From: a phage
Length of the DNA: 64,000 nt
Sequence record: PV805638.1
Reading direction: 5' to 3' (one strand)
Of the stretch, positions 1,415 through 62,751 are shown piece by piece. The notes under the pieces were generated by a model. It ran no database searches. It was not told where the DNA came from and saw nothing but the letters and a program-made list of their open reading frames with translations. The translations under genes were made by a program, and so were the position numbers. Each line of letters opens with the position of its first letter. The stretch's first letter is position 1.

Positions 1415-1714
1415 ATGCGTACACTATGTAACCGTTATAATCCAACCGGACTGATTAACATCATGGCCTTATATGGTAGCAAAATGACTTATGGTGCTCG
1501 TTGGCAAGTGTCTGTAGAAGACAAGAATGGCAAATGTCATGACCACTACTTCGTAGCTAAGCCTACTCGTAAACAAATCCGTAAACTTCACAAAGTACGT
1601 AAGCATTACTTACTAAGTAAATGCTACGAATGTGGCAAAAGGATAGAACTAGGTAAAGAATTTACTTTTGATGATCTCAACTATGCTCACAATAACTGCT
1701 TAGGAACTAAATAA
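1415..1714 (+). CDS. hypothetical protein with Cys/His pairs (possible zinc-binding)
   Basis: ORF 99 aa; CHDH ... CYECGKR ... HNNC pattern. Confidence 0.5.
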   Translation: MRTLCNRYNPTGLINIMALYGSKMTYGARWQVSVEDKNGKCHDHYFVAKPTRKQIRKLHKVRKHYLLSKCYECGKRIELGKEFTFDDLNYAHNNCLGTK

Positions 1715-1715
1715 A

Positions 1716-2120
1716 ATGACTACTCATAAAATTGTAAAAAGCTGGACTACTGAAGCTGGTTTATCTGCTGTAATCCTGCTAGTAAATGATGGTTCTCACC
1801 ATTGTGGTTACGTAGCATTGCCTGCTGATTTAGCAGACAAAGACTTTATTAATTATGATCCAGAAGAATCCATTTCTGTTCATGGTGGTGTTACCTATCA
1901 AGATGCACTTCCTCAATTAGAGGATAAAATCGCTATCGGTTTTGATTGTGCTCATCACGGTGACCTCATGAAATGCCCTGAGAAGTACAAAGGTACTCCT
2001 CTGGAAGGACTGCGCATGTATTCAGAAGGTGTATGGCGAGATGAGCAATATTGCACCAATGAGTGTGAGTCTATGGCTAAACAACTAATGGCAATGTTGC
2101 CTAAACAACTAGAAGGATAA
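1716..2120 (+). CDS. hypothetical protein
   Basis: ORF 134 aa, start adjacent to stop of previous gene. Confidence 0.5.
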   Translation: MTTHKIVKSWTTEAGLSAVILLVNDGSHHCGYVALPADLADKDFINYDPEESISVHGGVTYQDALPQLEDKIAIGFDCAHHGDLMKCPEKYKGTPLEGLRMYSEGVWRDEQYCTNECESMAKQLMAMLPKQLEG

Positions 2121-2124
2121 TGCT

Positions 2125-2277
2125 ATGAAGCTACTAGCAGAGATTCTGTGTATTTTATTAATGATACTGCTGGTAGCTGCATTTCCGTGGCTATTAGCCG
2201 TAGGCATTATTATTGGTATGCTCGTAGCCGGAGCGAGTGATGCTCGTGGCAGAGATGAGCCAGGTGGAGATGTGTAA
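2125..2277 (+). CDS. small membrane protein (50 aa)
   Basis: ATG 2125; strongly hydrophobic LLAEILCILLMILLVAAFPWLLAVGIIIGMLVA; below ORF-track cutoff. Confidence 0.4.
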   Translation: MKLLAEILCILLMILLVAAFPWLLAVGIIIGMLVAGASDARGRDEPGGDV

Positions 2278-2606
2278 ACACTGCCAGAAGAGTATGTACG
2301 GGGGAACCAGTGATATTCACTAACATTGAGGATGCCATTGAAGAATGTATCTTCCGTAGATATCACACTGGAGTACAGAAACGACACTATGGTGTTGTGC
2401 AACTCAATGGCTATCAAATGGCTGTAAGAATTGTACGTAACAATAAACCTTTTAACTTTATGTGGAGTACTAAACATGCGTAAGTCATTAATCATGGGAA
2501 CCAAAGCTGACGTACAAAAGATGAAAGAGCGTCTGGCTGCTAAGCAACAGGCATCTGAATCAGTACGTAAGATTGTTACCTTCAATCATCCGTGCATCAA
2601 ATAGTA

Positions 2607-2645
2607 AGGAGTCCTCCAATAGGAGGCTCCTATTTTTTATTTTTG
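2607..2645 (+). terminator. rho-independent terminator
   Basis: GGAG(T)CCTCC-AATA-GGAGGCTCC hairpin with one bulge followed by TATTTTTTATTTTT. Confidence 0.65.
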
Positions 2646-2681
2646 AATAGTTAAATATGTATTTAAATAGGAGAAAGAACC

Positions 2682-2990
2682 TTGAATGAAATAGTATGCA
2701 TACTTCCACACTTAGCTAAAGTAGCTGATAGGAATATACGGATACATTTACCCTTCCCATTAAGTAACCCATTCACTCGTAATGAAAGAACCACAGTAGA
2801 GGATATAGAGGTAGCTTATGAAGCTTACCTTCGTAATCGTCTTATTAGTGGTGACAAATTAATTACAGCAGAGATGGAAAGGATTGCTGGCTTTGTCACA
2901 GATAGTACAAAGAAACCTGTTGGTTTAATTGGTACTGAATCTGATGTTAACGTTATTCGTAAAATATTAATGGAGGCATTAAGCCAATGA
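2682..2990 (+). CDS. hypothetical protein (TTG start)
   Basis: ORF 102 aa; AGGAGA RBS upstream; stop overlaps next ATG (ATGATG). Confidence 0.5.
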   Translation: MNEIVCILPHLAKVADRNIRIHLPFPLSNPFTRNERTTVEDIEVAYEAYLRNRLISGDKLITAEMERIAGFVTDSTKKPVGLIGTESDVNVIRKILMEALSQ

Positions 2991-6206: not shown

Positions 6207-6359
6207 TAATCGTGCAGTAGAAGACTTCTATGCTCATAGAGAGTTGGTACTGAAACGTATCAATGAAGCAATGAAACGTGAAGCAGAAGCTAAAGCTAAA
6301 CGTAACCGTAAATAAATCCAAATGCGAGCCAAGTGGCTCAAGACGCTAAGGAATACAAA

Positions 6360-6791
6360 ATGCAACTGTTAACTGCCCGTGAATACCTGAAAGTAGATAT
6401 CGCTAACAACTATGGCTTAGACAAGAAGACATGGGATGAGCGTATTAGCTGGTTCGATGAGAATGAAGCTAACCTGCTTAATCTGGTAGATGAAGCTGAA
6501 GAATCTGCATTGTTCTATGCTGGTGTAAACGCATGGAAAGATATGAAAGCCGGTAAGCCTATCGGTTATGCTGTAGCTCTGGATGCTACATCATCCGGCT
6601 TACAGCTACTGGCTTGCCTGACTGGTGACCGTTCTGCTGCTGAACTGTGTAACGTAGTTAACTACATGGGGGAGAATGGTAAGCCATTACGTCGTGATGC
6701 TTATACAGTTATCTATCACAAGATGCTGGACATCCTTGGTGAAGCATCTCGTATTAAACGTAGTGATACTAAGCAGGCCGTTAACCTATAA
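6360..6791 (+). CDS. phage RNA polymerase II large subunit (RNAP2), 5' exon / N-terminal fragment
   Basis: DATSSGLQLLACLTGD resembles T7 RNAP motif A (DGSCSGIQH); ORF stops inside the motif-B region (SDTKQAVNL*). Confidence 0.6.
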   Translation: MQLLTAREYLKVDIANNYGLDKKTWDERISWFDENEANLLNLVDEAEESALFYAGVNAWKDMKAGKPIGYAVALDATSSGLQLLACLTGDRSAAELCNVVNYMGENGKPLRRDAYTVIYHKMLDILGEASRIKRSDTKQAVNL

Positions 6792-7596
6792 GTCATGGCG
6801 GCCTTTAAACCGGGTGAACTCATGGAACATCCCTAGTGGACAATCATGAGCCAAGTTGGTAACGTAGAAAGCTCAATAAGGAGCATTCTATGTCAGAATT
6901 CAAAACGTGCAGTCGATGTAAAGAATTACTTCCTATCGAAGTATTCCCAGAGACTAAAAAAGCAATCACAGGACTCAAGACTAATTACGAGAATCGTTGC
7001 AGACCTTGCAAGGCTGCTGCTGCTCGTGAATGGCGTAAAAATAATCCCGGTTACACTGGAACTGGGATTCTTAAGGCAATACCGGAAGAGCATCGTAAAT
7101 GGTATTCAGCAGTCTCACTTAGACTGAGAGATGCAAAGAGCAGATGTAAAAAGCTCGGTAAGCCTATGCCTGATTGCACAGTAGAGTACTTATTTGAAAT
7201 CCTTAAATCACAGGAATTCAAATGTGCTTTAACTGGTGCAACCTTAGTAATTGAGTCGGGACATCCCTTGTGTCTATCATTAGACCAGATAGAGCCAAGC
7301 AAGGGATATAGTATTGATAATGTTCAATGGTTAGCTTGGTGTGTAAACCGAGCAAAGGGTGACCTTTCTACCAATGACTTTATTGATATGTGTGATGCTG
7401 TTTTGAATAACCAAAAGGTGCAGAGACTATCGAAAAGCAGCGTAAGCTGAACTTAGTAGAGTAGGCCCAAGTGGGTCGAAGCGCCCGGCTAGACTAATAG
7501 TCTAGATGATATAGTCCGAACTCACTGGTAACAGTGAGATGCAGGTAAAGCTGCTGGGGAAGATTAACGACCTTCCTTGAACATAATGTATGACTG
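6790..7596 (+). mobile_element. putative group I intron (about 0.8 kb) with HNH homing endonuclease ORF, interrupting RNAP2
   Basis: RNAP2 homology stops at 6791 and resumes at about 7590 in motif B; no RBS before the 3' part; GNRA-capped hairpin 7521..7538 and other hairpins; boundaries are approximate (+/-10 nt). Confidence 0.45.
6890..7450 (+). CDS. HNH homing endonuclease
   Basis: 186 aa; strong AAGGAG RBS; N-terminal Cys cluster and SLDQIEPSKGYSIDNVQWLAWCVNRAKGD HNH-type motif. Confidence 0.7.
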   Translation: MSEFKTCSRCKELLPIEVFPETKKAITGLKTNYENRCRPCKAAAAREWRKNNPGYTGTGILKAIPEEHRKWYSAVSLRLRDAKSRCKKLGKPMPDCTVEYLFEILKSQEFKCALTGATLVIESGHPLCLSLDQIEPSKGYSIDNVQWLAWCVNRAKGDLSTNDFIDMCDAVLNNQKVQRLSKSSVS

Positions 7597-8384
7597 CATT
7601 CTATGGTTCAGAAGCCAAGCCTAAAGAAGTATTCGGTGAAGGTATTCGTCTCAAGACTTTTGAGAATGTAATGGAAACAGTTGCTAGTGGACCTTGGGCA
7701 CTGAACAAGTTCTTACTGCAATGTGGTAACCCGGATGCTAGCCGTTACGTATGGGTACTGCCTGACAATTTCCATGCTGTCATTAAGGTCATGGTTCCAG
7801 AGGTACAGACCGTTAACTTCTTAGGTAAGCCATTCGACATCACTCGTATGGTTCAGGGTACTGAAGATAAGACTCGTATGCTCTCTGCTAACATCACCCA
7901 CTCTATTGATGGAATGGTGGTACGTGAGATGCTGCGTCGCTGTAACTTCGACATGAACCAGGTGAACTATATTAAGTCCCTCTGTGAAGGGACCAGTGAG
8001 TATATGCTGGGTACTAGCGAAAACTACGACATGGTTAGTCAACTGTGGCATAACTATGAGAAATCAGGATTCCTGTCTACCCGTATCTTTGATTATCTGG
8101 ATTCTGACTCAATTAAACTGGTTGATACAGATGTAATCATGGCTATGCTTAATACCATGCCTAAGAAACCATTCCCTGTAATGACCGTACATGACTGCTT
8201 CCGTTGTCATCCTAACTATGGCAATGACTTGCGTCGTCAGTACAATCAGATTCTGTCTGACATTGCTAAGAGTGACCTACTGGGCTTCATCCTGTCTCAG
8301 GTACTGGGGCAAGAGTTCTCTGCTGGTAAGCTGGATGACAGCCTCTGGCAGGACATCCTTGAAACGGATTATGCATTAAGTTAA
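7590..8384 (+). CDS. phage RNA polymerase II large subunit (RNAP2), 3' exon / C-terminal fragment
   Basis: AFYGSEAKPKE resembles T7 motif B (LAYGSKEFG); TVHDCFRCHP resembles motif C (HDSFGT); exon 1 + exon 2 is about 410 aa. Confidence 0.6.
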   Translation: MTAFYGSEAKPKEVFGEGIRLKTFENVMETVASGPWALNKFLLQCGNPDASRYVWVLPDNFHAVIKVMVPEVQTVNFLGKPFDITRMVQGTEDKTRMLSANITHSIDGMVVREMLRRCNFDMNQVNYIKSLCEGTSEYMLGTSENYDMVSQLWHNYEKSGFLSTRIFDYLDSDSIKLVDTDVIMAMLNTMPKKPFPVMTVHDCFRCHPNYGNDLRRQYNQILSDIAKSDLLGFILSQVLGQEFSAGKLDDSLWQDILETDYALS

Positions 8385-21293: not shown

Positions 21294-21689
21294 ATGAGTT
21301 CTGTATACAGAGTTAATCGCAAAGCAACTGATGAAGACATCATTCGTATGAATGCTGTTGGTCTGTCCCTCGCAACTATCGCTAAGACGTTAGGGGTTCA
21401 CCCCACTACGGTTACTCTGCGATTGCGTTCTTTAAACATTGAACCTGCCGACACACGTCGGACGTTCATGGAGAATGTACTCCGTCCATTACCAACCCAT
21501 GTGGTAGATTGGCTATCAGAGCAAGTTGGTCCTGCTTATGAGATTCGTTCATATGTAAGGGACTTGATTCTGGAGGCATATAATAATCGCCACCTTAACC
21601 AAGAGAGTGAGCATGACAAGTTCATCCGTTTGTACGCTGGAAAACACACGGCAATGGTTTCTAAAAGCCGTACCGAATCCGACGAGTAA
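21294..21689 (+). CDS. putative helix-turn-helix DNA-binding protein
   Basis: AAGAGGAAA RBS; MNAVGLSLATIAKTLGVHPTTV HTH-like segment. Confidence 0.5.
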   Translation: MSSVYRVNRKATDEDIIRMNAVGLSLATIAKTLGVHPTTVTLRLRSLNIEPADTRRTFMENVLRPLPTHVVDWLSEQVGPAYEIRSYVRDLILEAYNNRHLNQESEHDKFIRLYAGKHTAMVSKSRTESDE

Positions 21690-22065
21690 GAATATTAGTA
21701 CCCAGATTGGTTGCCATCTGGAAGAAGTAGCAGAAATGCTAAACGCTATTACCAGTAAAACACCAGAGCGTGCCTCACAGATCGAGGCACTACGTGCAGC
21801 AATTGACCATGTGGGTAATCTGCTTAAAAAAGATAACAATATTGTTATCAAAGACTCAGTAGAACTACTGGACTCACTGGCAGATCAGATCGTTACAGCA
21901 ACTGGCGTCGGTACTTTCCTTGGGATGAATGTCCCTGGAGCATTGGCTGAGGTCAATCGCTCAAACTATTCCAAGTTCGAAGATGGAGAACCTATCTTCA
22001 ACGAGAACAAGAAAGTCATGAAGGGGAAAGATTATACTCCCCCGGATTTAACACCTTACATCTAA
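21607..22065 (+). CDS. MazG-like nucleoside triphosphate pyrophosphohydrolase (start uncertain)
   Basis: HLEEVAEML, ELLDSLADQIV, NRSNYSKF blocks; the only in-frame ATGs are 21607 (83-nt overlap with upstream gene) or 21736. Confidence 0.5.
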   Translation: MSMTSSSVCTLENTRQWFLKAVPNPTSKNISTQIGCHLEEVAEMLNAITSKTPERASQIEALRAAIDHVGNLLKKDNNIVIKDSVELLDSLADQIVTATGVGTFLGMNVPGALAEVNRSNYSKFEDGEPIFNENKKVMKGKDYTPPDLTPYI

Positions 22066-22086
22066 CCCTCTACGGAGGGTTTTTTA
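22065..22086 (+). terminator. rho-independent terminator
   Basis: ACCCTC-TACG-GAGGGT followed by TTTTTT. Confidence 0.65.
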
Positions 22087-22098
22087 CTGGAGATTTAA

Positions 22099-23408
22099 AT
22101 GTTTTCCAAACCTACCAAAGCCCCATTGAACCAGGGGCAAGAAGCGGTTGCGAAGGAGTTCTTCGACTTCCTGCTCGACCCTAATGCCACAGAGTTCGGA
22201 ATCAGTGGACCTGGGGGGACTGGTAAGACATTCCTGATGTCGCACCTAATTGATGACACTATGCCTGCGTATATGGAAACCTGTTCTCTGATGGGAACCA
22301 AGCCTCTGTATAACGAAGTTGTCATGACTGCGACCACGAACAAAGCTGCTGAAGTTCTGGCTCAAGCTACTGGGCGTCCAACGTCTACCTATCACTCCTT
22401 CCAGGGACTGATTGTTAAGAATGACTTTAAGACTGGTGAGGCTAATGTCGTACCGTCTAAGTCATTCTCTATTAAGAAGAACAAAATCATCTTCGTAGAC
22501 GAAGCATCCATGATTGACCGTCAGTTACTTAGGTATGCTCGTGAAGGTACTCACCAGTGCAAACTGGTATTCGTAGGCGATGCTTCTCAGCTTCTACCTG
22601 TTAAAGAGAGTAAGTCTCCAGTGTACGCAGGTAATATCCCAACACACTATCTGACTGAACAGATGCGTACCGATTCACCAGACTCAAAGCGTTGCATCAG
22701 CAATTGCGTGATACGGTGGAAGGTAAGACAGGCTTCCTGCCTATTAAATGTATTCCAGGCATTATTGACTGGGTGCAAGGGGAAGAGATGGAGAAACTGG
22801 TTCTCAGTCACTTCACTCAGCCTACCAATAGCCGTATTGTTGCTTACACCAATGACCAGGTTATTAATTACAATAACTACATTCGTGAAGCTAATGGCTA
22901 CGTAGGTGAATACTCCATTGGTGAACAACTAGTTTCTAACTCAGCTGTTCGCTTGGGCGGGGAAGACCGTCTGTCTATTGAGCAGGACGTAAAACTCATC
23001 GACCAGGATAGTAGTACTCGAATGATTAAGGTTACAGGTGACCTGGAACTGGAAGTCCGTGATAGTACTCTAGACCTTGGTTATGGTGGTATTGTTAGTG
23101 AAGTACCAATTCCTACCGACCCAGACTACTTCAACCGTTTGGTTAAGTGGTTAGGTAAAGAGAAGAACTGGGAACCTTACTTCCGTCTTAAAGAAACTAT
23201 TCCAGACCTGCGTGCTACTCATGCATGTACTGTTCATAAATCACAAGGCTCTACTTACGACACAATCTTCATTGATGCAGATGACCTCTCAAGCTGTCGC
23301 CAACCTGATATGGTTGCCCGTCTGCTTTACGTCGCTGTGTCTCGTGCCCGTAAGCGAGTAGTGTTCTATGGCAATCTTGCCAGTAAGTACGGTGGCCTAA
23401 CTTTCTAA
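22099..23408 (+). CDS. Dda/RecD-like SF1 DNA helicase, split between two reading frames (-1 shift near 22685..22695)
   Basis: Walker A GPGGTGKT and Walker B FVDEASM in frame 1 (to about 22690); helicase C-terminal motif VHKSQGSTYD...VAVSRAR in ORF 22692..23408. Confidence 0.6.
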
Positions 23409-26538: not shown

Positions 26539-26840
26539 CTAAAAGTACTAAAGAAACCGTCGTCAAAAAATATCATTGGATGGTGGCAGCACAGGTAATC
26601 TTCCAGCTTCCTAAAGCCGATGATGGTTCCCTACTTACCATGAACACAATGCTGCTCACTGACGAACCTCATGTGACTTATAAAGATTTGGCCCGTGTCA
26701 ATCACTCCCTGAAGATTAGTCTGGACCAGCGTTTCGACACCTCAGTTGACCTGAAAGACATTGTTTATCTGTCTATTAACAATCTGGGTCTGATGTCTGA
26801 ACCAGAGTTCCAGGCAAACATGATTCCCAAGGGGGAATAA
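26535..26840 (+). CDS. hypothetical protein
   Basis: 101 aa, ATGA coupling. Confidence 0.45.
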   Translation: MTKSTKETVVKKYHWMVAAQVIFQLPKADDGSLLTMNTMLLTDEPHVTYKDLARVNHSLKISLDQRFDTSVDLKDIVYLSINNLGLMSEPEFQANMIPKGE

Positions 26841-27124
26841 TGACTAAGCTCTCCGGTGGTCTTAATAACTACTATGTAGTTTTAATTAAAAATCCCCAAC
26901 GGAAAGAGCAAGAGCCATATCAAGCAGAGTGTGAGGATATTATCCAAGCACTGGGCATGACCTTCGATGAAGGTTGTGCCTTTAAAGCTCTATGGCGAAA
27001 TGCTGCTGCCCGTATGGGTAATGGTAAACCAGGTAACTCTTCGGTGTACGACTCAGAGAAGATTGTGCATTATGCCAATCGAATATTGAAAAAGGCTTAC
27101 AATGAAAGTAACCAACAACCATGA
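26840..27124 (+). CDS. hypothetical protein
   Basis: 94 aa. Confidence 0.45.
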   Translation: MTKLSGGLNNYYVVLIKNPQRKEQEPYQAECEDIIQALGMTFDEGCAFKALWRNAAARMGNGKPGNSSVYDSEKIVHYANRILKKAYNESNQQP

Positions 27125-60167: not shown

Positions 60168-62702
60168 TCAGAACACATAATCCAGTTGCGTAAGCTGCTT
60201 CAACTGAATCTGCACGGTACTATCCAGAGTTACTGCCGGAACAGTTAAGCCAGAAACACCGATTGCAAAGTCCGCAATGAACCCGGTAGTAGGATTCTTT
60301 ACTATATCCGCCCCAGTACCCCCAGAACCTGTACTTGCAAACTGAGTCTGCTTAGTACCATAAGCATTCCCTGTACCCGCAATAACTAGTTGCCATACAC
60401 CCCTGCCGAGCGTACCTGGAATACTCAAGCTACCTGAACCAGCAGCCCGAAATATCTTGGTATTCTCATAGAACATACACTCTTGCAACGTGCAGGTACT
60501 TCTCTGCCCGGTACTCACAACCTGATTACCCCGGAAGCTAAAGTTAGTCTGGTCATTCAGAACGAAGTCACACAGCTTAGCCTCTTGCACCCGCACGTTC
60601 ATATCCAGAGTGTTGGCATGAGCAATCAGGGACTTAGGAATACCTTGCACCTTATATCCAACAGCACGATAACTTAAATCCAGAGAGTTGTACTGCTTCA
60701 CGGAGTTGCCAATCAGCTTAACCGTCTGTCCCCGATATACCTGGGATGCGCTAGCCCCAGCGTTAACTATAATAGCCTCGGTTGTGTTATTGACAGTCTG
60801 ACACTTAAGTACAACCGTATTGTGACTGATATCGATATCCTGGTACACCTGGTATGAGCTATCCCCTGCTCCGGTCGATATAGCTACCCCATCAAAAGCT
60901 CTAAGCTCGCAATAGTTGTTGTGAATCTTAACAAAGGGGTTCGGATACGTCGCTGCCGTAGCCTCCCCGCCGCCACCTACATCGATGCTGCGAGTATACT
61001 TTCCACCTATAAGCAGTCCGGAAGTAGCACTAGCAGGAATATCTCTGGAGCGCACATAGTTGTTGCTAACGATGAGGTTGTATGGTTCGTAGTTTGGATT
61101 CCAACCTGCCCCACATTTAGCATATATACCAACTACGCCGTGCTCAAGGCACATGTTCTCCGTGATGATTACCTGCCCACCACCGTGGAAGTCAATACAC
61201 TTACGACGACAGTTCTTAATCTGGTTTTTAGCAACAACTACGTTCCTGATTCTTCGGTTACGCGCATGCGAAATACCGTACCCAGGGTCGTAGCTATCGT
61301 TCAGAACATCATCACCATAAGGGTGTCCAATATTCTGGATATCGTTGGACTCATAGTTTAGTCTGTAGCCGGACAGTACGTAGATACCTGCACTGTAGCA
61401 ATCCTTGATGGTACAGCCCATAACCATAACACCGTCAGGTACATCCGTGTCATTCGTATAATCCGTGCTGCCGTAGGTAGTCGCAATGTTACGGATGCCG
61501 ATACCAATGCCACCAAAGTTAAAACCGGATACGTGCGAGTTCAGAATAAGGATGCCACGGCAGCCGCGTTGCACCTTGATACCATTAGCCCAGCTTCCGA
61601 TGTAACCGCCAAGGAAAGTCCCCCAGGTACTGCGCCACCCATCCAACTGATTACCCGCGTCATCATAGTTAGGGAACTGTCCAGCTACACCAGCATAAGC
61701 ACCAGACGTGTACGCACTGGAGTCAACGGAGTTATTAGGACCTGTAAACAGTGCTGTATCGTATCCGAAACGAGCCTCACCTTTCTCTGCATAACCAGTA
61801 GGCACATCTATAGCAGGGAACTTGTTAGGGCCACGCACAGTCAGCGATACAGTCACGTTCCGGCAATTTACAAGGGCAAGTCCGTCCAGCCCATGCGTAT
61901 TCACAATTATAGTGCCGTTGGAGATACGAATACCTTCCTTATTTACCAGTGCCAGACACGGACTGTAGTTACGTGTACCGTCGCTGAAGTCAGGCTCAGT
62001 AGGGTACGTAGAAGCCAATGCAGGATTTTTTCGAACTAAATATGTCTTTCCTCCTAAATCAATATCTCCAGTGGCGGCGTCGAAACATGCCTGCACTGCC
62101 AACGTATCGTCGGCAACGCCATCGCCAACCGCCCCCCATCCACGTGGATCGCCATTATCACGCCAGCGAGCCATTTGTAGTTCGGGGTATTTTGTTGCAC
62201 CTTCAGGGTCTGAAATCTGTCCTCGTAGCACCACATCCCCAACACTCACCCAAGCACCCAGACCAACACCACCAGAAGTTTTAGGGGTTGAGTCGGCAGG
62301 AACTACTTTAGGCAATACACCATCCCATCGATACTTACCATCGGTAAAGACAACCAGTTCATTCTTGGTATTAACTGTTACACCAGTATCAAATGAACCA
62401 GGTAAGGTTACATACTCTTCACGAGCAACAGCAAGTGCACCTAAGTCCACACTACCAGCAGAGTGTACTAATACCCCAGATGGACTAAGACTTGCAGCAG
62501 TAACCCCTGAACCAATGTCAGCAGGTAAGGAATAAGCACGCTGTGTCTCCTTGTCGTAGATGACTTTGTAACCACTTAGTACAGCACCCACTGAGAAGTA
62601 AACAACCTCAGATTGCTTAACTCCAAAGTGACGGGCTACTGCTTGTTTATTGGTTAAGATTCCAGTTGAACCTTTACCACCTTGAGAGAACATTTCGTTC
62701 AT
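60168..62702 (-). CDS. tailspike with pectate-lyase-like right-handed beta-helix (putative polysaccharide depolymerase)
   Basis: 844 aa; GAVGDGVADDTLAVQACFDAA resembles the pectate_lyase_3 N-cap motif; repeated G/N/I-rich beta-helix rungs. Confidence 0.65.
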   Translation of the reverse strand: MNEMFSQGGKGSTGILTNKQAVARHFGVKQSEVVYFSVGAVLSGYKVIYDKETQRAYSLPADIGSGVTAASLSPSGVLVHSAGSVDLGALAVAREEYVTLPGSFDTGVTVNTKNELVVFTDGKYRWDGVLPKVVPADSTPKTSGGVGLGAWVSVGDVVLRGQISDPEGATKYPELQMARWRDNGDPRGWGAVGDGVADDTLAVQACFDAATGDIDLGGKTYLVRKNPALASTYPTEPDFSDGTRNYSPCLALVNKEGIRISNGTIIVNTHGLDGLALVNCRNVTVSLTVRGPNKFPAIDVPTGYAEKGEARFGYDTALFTGPNNSVDSSAYTSGAYAGVAGQFPNYDDAGNQLDGWRSTWGTFLGGYIGSWANGIKVQRGCRGILILNSHVSGFNFGGIGIGIRNIATTYGSTDYTNDTDVPDGVMVMGCTIKDCYSAGIYVLSGYRLNYESNDIQNIGHPYGDDVLNDSYDPGYGISHARNRRIRNVVVAKNQIKNCRRKCIDFHGGGQVIITENMCLEHGVVGIYAKCGAGWNPNYEPYNLIVSNNYVRSRDIPASATSGLLIGGKYTRSIDVGGGGEATAATYPNPFVKIHNNYCELRAFDGVAISTGAGDSSYQVYQDIDISHNTVVLKCQTVNNTTEAIIVNAGASASQVYRGQTVKLIGNSVKQYNSLDLSYRAVGYKVQGIPKSLIAHANTLDMNVRVQEAKLCDFVLNDQTNFSFRGNQVVSTGQRSTCTLQECMFYENTKIFRAAGSGSLSIPGTLGRGVWQLVIAGTGNAYGTKQTQFASTGSGGTGADIVKNPTTGFIADFAIGVSGLTVPAVTLDSTVQIQLKQLTQLDYVF

Positions 62703-62751
62703 ATAAACCTCATTGTTTTTCTAGGTAAGCCCCCAACTACGGGGGCTTTGA

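Follow-up and report, generated by a model that had tools for sequence, protein, structure and literature searches.

A stretch of phage DNA of 64,000 nucleotides (sequence record PV805638.1; this whole stretch is referred to as the window) contains a Dda-like helicase gene at 22099..23408 whose coding sequence is divided between two reading frames. We conclude with high confidence that this split is a one-off single-base deletion, which arose either through an error of sequencing or by very recent mutation, that the intended product is a 436-aa helicase, and that no built-in recoding is involved.

The relatives of the window were identified with megablast using 22099-23408 as a query. The search matched 59 phage records, each with at least 80% query coverage and 80-97% identity, and nearly all of these are phages of Escherichia or Shigella that belong to the N4-like genus Gamaleyavirus (Schitoviridae). 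The top match was vB_EcoP_G7C (96.7% identity); the same picture was obtained with a 14-kb query, where G7C matched at 96.1%. On the strength of these matches the source of the window is assigned to Gamaleyavirus, as a G7C-like, N4-like coliphage of the Schitoviridae. When the G7C proteome was compared with the window by tblastn, the two genomes were found to be collinear from gp1 to the tail-fibre genes, and among approximately 62 genes common to both a change of frame was observed in gp37 only.

Several other differences from G7C were observed in the window. G7C has five HNH homing-endonuclease genes (gp2.1, gp15.1, gp24.1, gp41.1 and gp47.1), none of which was matched in the window, and the annotation of several relatives lists 'DNA polymerase (x2)' or 'DNA primase (x2)'; members of Gamaleyavirus seem to differ widely in the mobile endonucleases that they carry. 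The match between the gp41 homologue (26840..27094) and G7C gp41 is limited to residues 1-85 of 156, and the differing C-terminal half adjoins the site where G7C has the HNH gene gp41.1. The tail-fibre region at 62193..62732 is diverged, with G7C gp63.1 matched over its first 174 aa only (71%) and gp66 matched weakly; this is the expected swap of a host-range module. The homologue of G7C gp16 (RNAP2 subunit A, the middle RNA polymerase subunit, 405 aa) is interrupted in the window (6333..8384). Its N-terminal part corresponds to ORF 6333..6791 and its C-terminal part to ORF 7590..8384 in the same frame, with about 800 nt between them. The insert contains a 186-aa Cys-rich ORF (6890..7450) with no Pfam match, and Rfam comparison gave two sub-threshold group I intron matches, one to RF00028 at 7199..7538 (30.2 bits, E 1.5e-5, gathering score 50) and the other at 6746..6999 (17.7 bits). 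The gp16 insert is probably a group I intron with a homing-endonuclease ORF, located inside the middle RNA polymerase gene.

The gene order around the helicase, gp34-gp35-gp36-gp37-gp38-gp39, is as in G7C. The helicase lies between the homologues of gp36 and gp38, upstream of the DNA polymerase gene gp39, which is exactly the position of the gp37 'DNA helicase' in G7C and N4. Judged by its sequence and location, 22099..23408 is the sole SF1B Dda/RecD-like helicase gene of the replication module and the homologue of N4 and G7C gp37. In relatives gp37 is annotated as 'ATP-dependent RecD-like DNA helicase' or 'Dda-like helicase', and is placed in PHROG 325 in the Mimir124 record. No helicase other than gp37 is annotated in G7C, and no further helicase domain was found in the neighbouring replication genes of the window, gp43 carrying PriCT_1 only. 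The features of the region are as follows.

22064..22090, + strand: terminator-like hairpin AACCCTCTACGGAGGGTT followed by a T-run (TTTTAC); a consensus match only, from a terminator scan
22099..22682, + strand: 5′ part of the helicase gene, in frame (codons 1-194 and the first two bases of codon 195)
within 22099..22682, + strand: Walker A, Walker B and motifs III and IV, covering RecA-like domain 1A and the beginning of 2A; AAA_30, E 8e-20, and AAA_19, E 2e-18
22678..22689, + strand: lesion site, CCAGACTCAAAG in the window and CCAGAACTCAAAG in relatives
22683..23408, + strand: remaining 3′ portion of the helicase gene, read in the -1 frame (intact-gene codons 196-436)
within 22683..23408, + strand: domains 2A/2B with motif V (VHKSQGST) and motif VI (VAVSRAR); UvrD_C_2, E 7e-15
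22683..22905, + strand: out-of-frame tail of the truncated frame-0 product (about 74 aa), with a stop codon at 22903-22905
22686..22689, + strand: A_AAG tetranucleotide, -1 slippage-prone in E. coli, within C_UCA_AAG

The hairpin at 22064..22090 sits between the gp36 homologue and the helicase gene, directly upstream of the helicase start, and a GGAG Shine-Dalgarno sequence is located just 3′ of it at about 22090-22093. From this arrangement, gp36 and gp37 may be separated by an attenuator or by the boundary of a transcription unit. The gp36 homologue itself (21607..22065; 'nucleotide pyrophosphohydrolase' in Bas96), the ORF of which overlaps the end of the gp35 homologue, is 76% identical to G7C gp36, compared with 96-100% for its neighbours. 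The divergence is concentrated in a stretch of approximately 120 nt (~21750..21870) where the alignment is rich in gaps, and this stretch has the look of mosaicism or recombination.

The frame-0 ORF of the helicase gene, 22099..22905, encodes 268 aa and contains Walker A in the sequence GISGPGGTGKTF, which includes GPGGTGKT, followed by Walker B (IIFVDEASMI), motif III (FVGDASQLLPV) and motif IV (LTEQMR). The -1 frame is open from 22659, after a TGA stop at 22656-22658, to the stop at 23406-23408, and contains TVHKSQGSTYD (motif V) and YVAVSRAR (motif VI). The preliminary description of this DNA had assigned GPGGTGKT and FVDEASM to the first frame, VHKSQGSTYD and VAVSRAR to the -1 frame, and had ended the first frame at 22905; all of these were found as described. 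In the protein the break falls just after motif IV and separates the first RecA-like domain from the remainder.

When the missing base was restored, the resulting protein matched Pfam families AAA_30 (76 bits against a gathering score of 27), AAA_19, PIF1 and UvrD_C_2 (54.5 bits against a gathering score of 27.4), each of them above its gathering score. Pfam searches with the two window ORFs placed the N-terminal domains on the frame-0 ORF and the C-terminal domain on the -1-frame ORF. Comparison of the repaired protein with solved structures gave matches to the Dda-like helicases 8JX6 (E 1e-22) and 9KWF, to T4 Dda (3UPU; phmmer E 1.8e-13, residues 33-265) and to RecD (E 3e-7). In the HMMER alignments to solved Dda-like helicases, query residues 29-264 form one stretch, which crosses residue 195 unbroken. 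The domain and structure matches across the break therefore identify an SF1B Dda/RecD-like helicase and, together with the ORF layout, agree with the earlier view of a single Dda-like helicase in two frames. The Walker A, Walker B and motifs III-VI of T4 Dda (PDB 3UPU, SF1B) are all present, although T4 Dda is a distant relative and the C-terminal half of the window's protein is nearer to Dda-like deep-sea helicases and RecD. By analogy with T4 Dda, the protein may act as a monomer with 5′-3′ polarity. The likeness to G7C and N4 gp37 is much closer and extends to the same genome position, the same AAA_30 and UvrD_C_2 architecture, and 431 of 436 residues identical to G7C gp37 after repair. The features expected of a gp37 orthologue (Walker A/B, motifs V/VI, orthology) were all found with the exception of an uninterrupted ORF, since the window's gene is without one A of codon 195 and hence occupies two frames.

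The position of the lesion was evident from the alignment of the gene with those of G7C, Bas96, pSb-1 and K57alpha1.2. A single gap was observed, with CCAG-ACTCAAAG in the window against CCAGAACTCAAAG in the relatives, and this gap was confirmed by the blastn gap listing. The missing base is one A of the invariant Glu195 codon, which is reduced from GAA to GA between 22682 and 22683. Loss of this A throws codons 196-436 into the -1 frame. Alignment to intact helicases of related phages, the check proposed in the preliminary description, thus placed the shift at 22682/22683; the break had been put at 22690-22692, which is correct to within about 10 nt but lies 8-10 nt downstream of the true site. 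The continuous ORF, put there at about 430 aa, has 436 aa on repair. The repaired protein is 99.1% identical to its homologue in K57alpha1.2.

The extra base is present in all 59 related records. The gene is 1310 nt long in the window; among the 40 relatives listed it is 1311 nt in 38, and the other two rows, both of pSb-1, have 1309 nt. In a sensitive blastn search of the 181-nt stretch around the break all 59 full-length matches had exactly one base more than the window, and none of these close relatives is split at the window's site. An alignment of 11 sequences, which took in Jgk1 (81% identical) and the Moovirus Moo19 (76%), showed GAA-CTN-AAR-GCA-TTG (E-L-K-A-L) at the break in all ten relatives, and none of the four relatives whose complete genes were aligned with the window's has an indel here. 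A tblastn search detected the homologue in 428 phage records from across the Schitoviridae. Coverage in one place was at least 80% in each of them, and the 40 rows sampled along the ranked list all show a single piece. Every other Schitoviridae homologue examined is one ORF of about 436 aa, excepting pSb-1, which is broken at other sites.

Neither the deletion nor its products were found elsewhere. Pattern scans of IMG/VR and JGI metagenome contigs gave no match to the deletion allele; the intact allele had five matches in IMG/VR. Exact-sequence look-ups found neither the 268-aa nor the 238-aa ORF product on record, nor the neighbouring rIIB protein of the window. The 74-aa tail of the frame-0 product is rich in Cys, Trp, Arg and Leu and has no homologue among 5.8 billion protein clusters. 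It is therefore out-of-frame junk and not truly low-complexity sequence, as it had been called in the preliminary description.

Shigella phage pSb-1 (KF620435.1) is similar to the window in that 1-nt deletions have led to annotation of its helicase as two 'hypothetical proteins' (psb1_0083/0084). The gene lies at 1501..2809 of the compared pSb-1 sequence and has two such deletions, which are probably sequencing errors in the deposited record. However, they are located at gene positions 221 and 309, compared with 584 in the window, and pSb-1 is intact at the window's site. The different locations indicate independent events, and the broken pSb-1 gene demonstrates that sporadic breaks of this helicase gene do occur in database records.

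The age of the break could be judged from codon differences downstream of it. In the true frame, 16 of the 18 differing codons are synonymous in comparison with G7C, 20 of 22 with Bas96 and 27 of 28 with K57alpha1.2. The break is therefore either very recent or not real, and by this measure the downstream half is under purifying selection essentially up to the present. An old, decayed pseudogene was rejected because the lesion is single and the downstream differences from G7C are almost all synonymous. Of the explanations offered in the preliminary description (an indel error, a pseudogene or programmed -1 frameshifting), a single-base deletion is upheld; a long-standing pseudogene conflicts with these data, and programmed frameshifting with the absence of conservation, heptamer and structure described below.

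The remainder of the window was also inspected for signs of sequence quality. The helicase lesion is the only isolated 1-nt gap within conserved coding sequence across the 64 kb; the full listing of other non-triplet gaps relative to G7C contains only gaps that are intergenic or paired within divergent patches. A low-quality, indel-ridden assembly was rejected, as the helicase is the only broken gene in the window. Since the rest of the window is without signs of low quality, an error in the helicase gene, if it is one, would be a lone one. Three differences are present near the deletion, namely the variable residue T/A/S193 and two synonymous third positions in the true frame; one nearby difference (CAT) is common to the window and PhAPEC5. 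A cluster of unique substitutions as the sign of a bad read was accordingly considered and rejected, the nearby differences being ordinary polymorphism. Interruption by an intron or homing endonuclease, as in the gp16 homologue of the window, was rejected because no sequence is inserted between the halves, which abut and overlap in a gene 1 nt shorter than those of its relatives.

With its 1-nt deletion at 22682/3, the window's gene is thus a member of this family that has been either disrupted or miscalled. As to the choice between error and real mutation, we infer that an error of base calling or assembly is the probable cause of the split; a real deletion that arose very recently in the sequenced stock is less likely. 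An error is favoured because a real deletion in so widely conserved a gene should rarely reach consensus in a viable stock. The lone indel contradicts all relatives and reverts to a perfect ORF, as an error would. Long homopolymers are the commonest context for indel errors of sequencing platforms, and in this respect the site is unlike the usual error context, the missing base lying in AA reduced to A with no long homopolymer. If the mutation is real, the helicase might be dispensable in laboratory growth or might be rescued by leaky slippage at A_AAG.

A real deletion could be a simple null or hypomorphic mutation, with the phage growing without functional gp37 or making use of the two fragments. 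One fragment would comprise residues 1-194 and the junk tail, and the other would be a C-terminal piece for which translation starts anew at ATG 22788. This ATG, residue 231 of the intact protein, is the first start codon in the -1 frame with a Shine-Dalgarno sequence (SD-like AAGGGG upstream, duplex -7.6 kcal/mol); the putative second ORF as such lacks a usable start, the first start codon of any kind in that frame, TTG 22692, having no Shine-Dalgarno sequence (duplex -0.1 kcal/mol). The protein would then have an accessory role comparable to that of T4 Dda, its closest characterised homologue by name, which is non-essential in T4, and the cleanness of the remaining genome is also consistent with a genuine mutation. 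However, a fragment beginning at residue 231 would miss residues 195-230 of domain 2A, no other helicase domain that might substitute was found in the neighbouring replication genes, and the gene is one ORF in all Schitoviridae sampled. The synonymous character of 16 of the 18 downstream differences means that any inactivation would have to be extremely recent. The literature was searched for genetic evidence that N4 gp37 is or is not essential, with no decisive result. Loss or reduction of function through a real deletion appears unlikely.

Alternatively, a real deletion could be tolerated through -1 slippage at A_AAG (22686-22689), which the deletion brings into the zero frame 4 nt after it. 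Four Z_ZZN tetranucleotides are present within 22659-22902 (A_AAG, A_AAT, G_GGG and A_AAC), and A_AAG is the only strongly shift-prone one between the stops at 22656-8 and 22903-5. A -1 slip at this site would produce ...TDSPDSKALHQQ... in place of the restored ...TDSPELKALHQQ..., a protein that differs at E195D and L196S only; the predicted slippage junction is ...SPDSKALHQQ..., with the junction peptide ...TDSPDSKALHQQLR.... Shifting by -1 at A_AAG has been documented in E. coli, in which one Lys-tRNA decodes both AAA and AAG (PMC5009743; shiftiness also in PMC10861913), and suppression of single-base deletions has been reported with an aggregate efficiency of ~1% (PMC10861913; PMC5009743). 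By comparison with these reports slippage may actually occur at 22686-22689, and about 1% of full-length E195D/L196S helicase would be made. Such an event would represent non-programmed frameshift suppression or a 'savior indel' lowering helicase dosage, possibly selected for that effect, for example as an escape from a helicase-sensing host defence. The location of the missing base outside any homopolymer and the clean remaining genome agree with this explanation. On the other hand, the deletion allele was seen nowhere else in the sequence collections searched, and there is neither an SD-like element upstream of 22686 nor a structure downstream, so that efficiency should be low. The gene encodes the only helicase annotated in G7C and is intact in the other relatives examined save pSb-1, and a loss of ~99% of the product should be strongly counter-selected. 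We regard slippage of this kind as a very unlikely explanation; if true, it would provide a natural savior indel with compensatory frameshifting in a phage replication gene.

The region was analyzed for signals of programmed recoding as well. The frames overlap at 22659-22905 with A_AAG inside the overlap. No slippery heptamer of the X_XXY_YYZ type is present between 22659 and 22902, in agreement with the preliminary description, which had nevertheless missed A_AAG within C_UCA_AAG. The 81 nt downstream of A_AAG fold with -18.3 kcal/mol compared with a shuffle mean of -17.45 (z = -0.32, not significant), 66 of 200 shuffles folding at least as well, and Rfam gave no match at the frameshift region. 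No homopolymer run that could support slippage of RNA polymerase is found at the break. In E. coli dnaX the programmed -1 frameshift employs A_AAA_AAG, where the Lys-tRNA slips on AAG, together with stimulators on both sides, an SD-like element upstream and a hairpin downstream. Half of this site, A_AAG, is in frame in the window, but the resemblance ends at the tetranucleotide, with the tandem heptamer, the stimulators and conservation all absent.

With no heptamer, no stimulatory structure and no conservation, programmed frameshifting is therefore rejected: production of a 268-aa protein and a 436-aa helicase in the style of dnaX tau/gamma, by -1 ribosomal frameshifting or transcriptional slippage, is extremely improbable for an arrangement that occurs in none of the 59 close relatives and none of the sampled distant homologues (pSb-1 being broken elsewhere) and whose frame-0 tail has no homologue.

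Overall, nothing here is new biology: the split helicase is a known gene with a single-base lesion. The main bearing is on annotation: both ORFs should be merged into one gp37 Dda-like helicase gene, with a flag for either a probable single-base error or a mutation of the frame, and neither recoding nor a pair of new proteins should be reported. A real deletion, which none of these data require, would turn the phage into a convenient natural test of how far non-programmed slippage at A_AAG can sustain a conserved replication gene.
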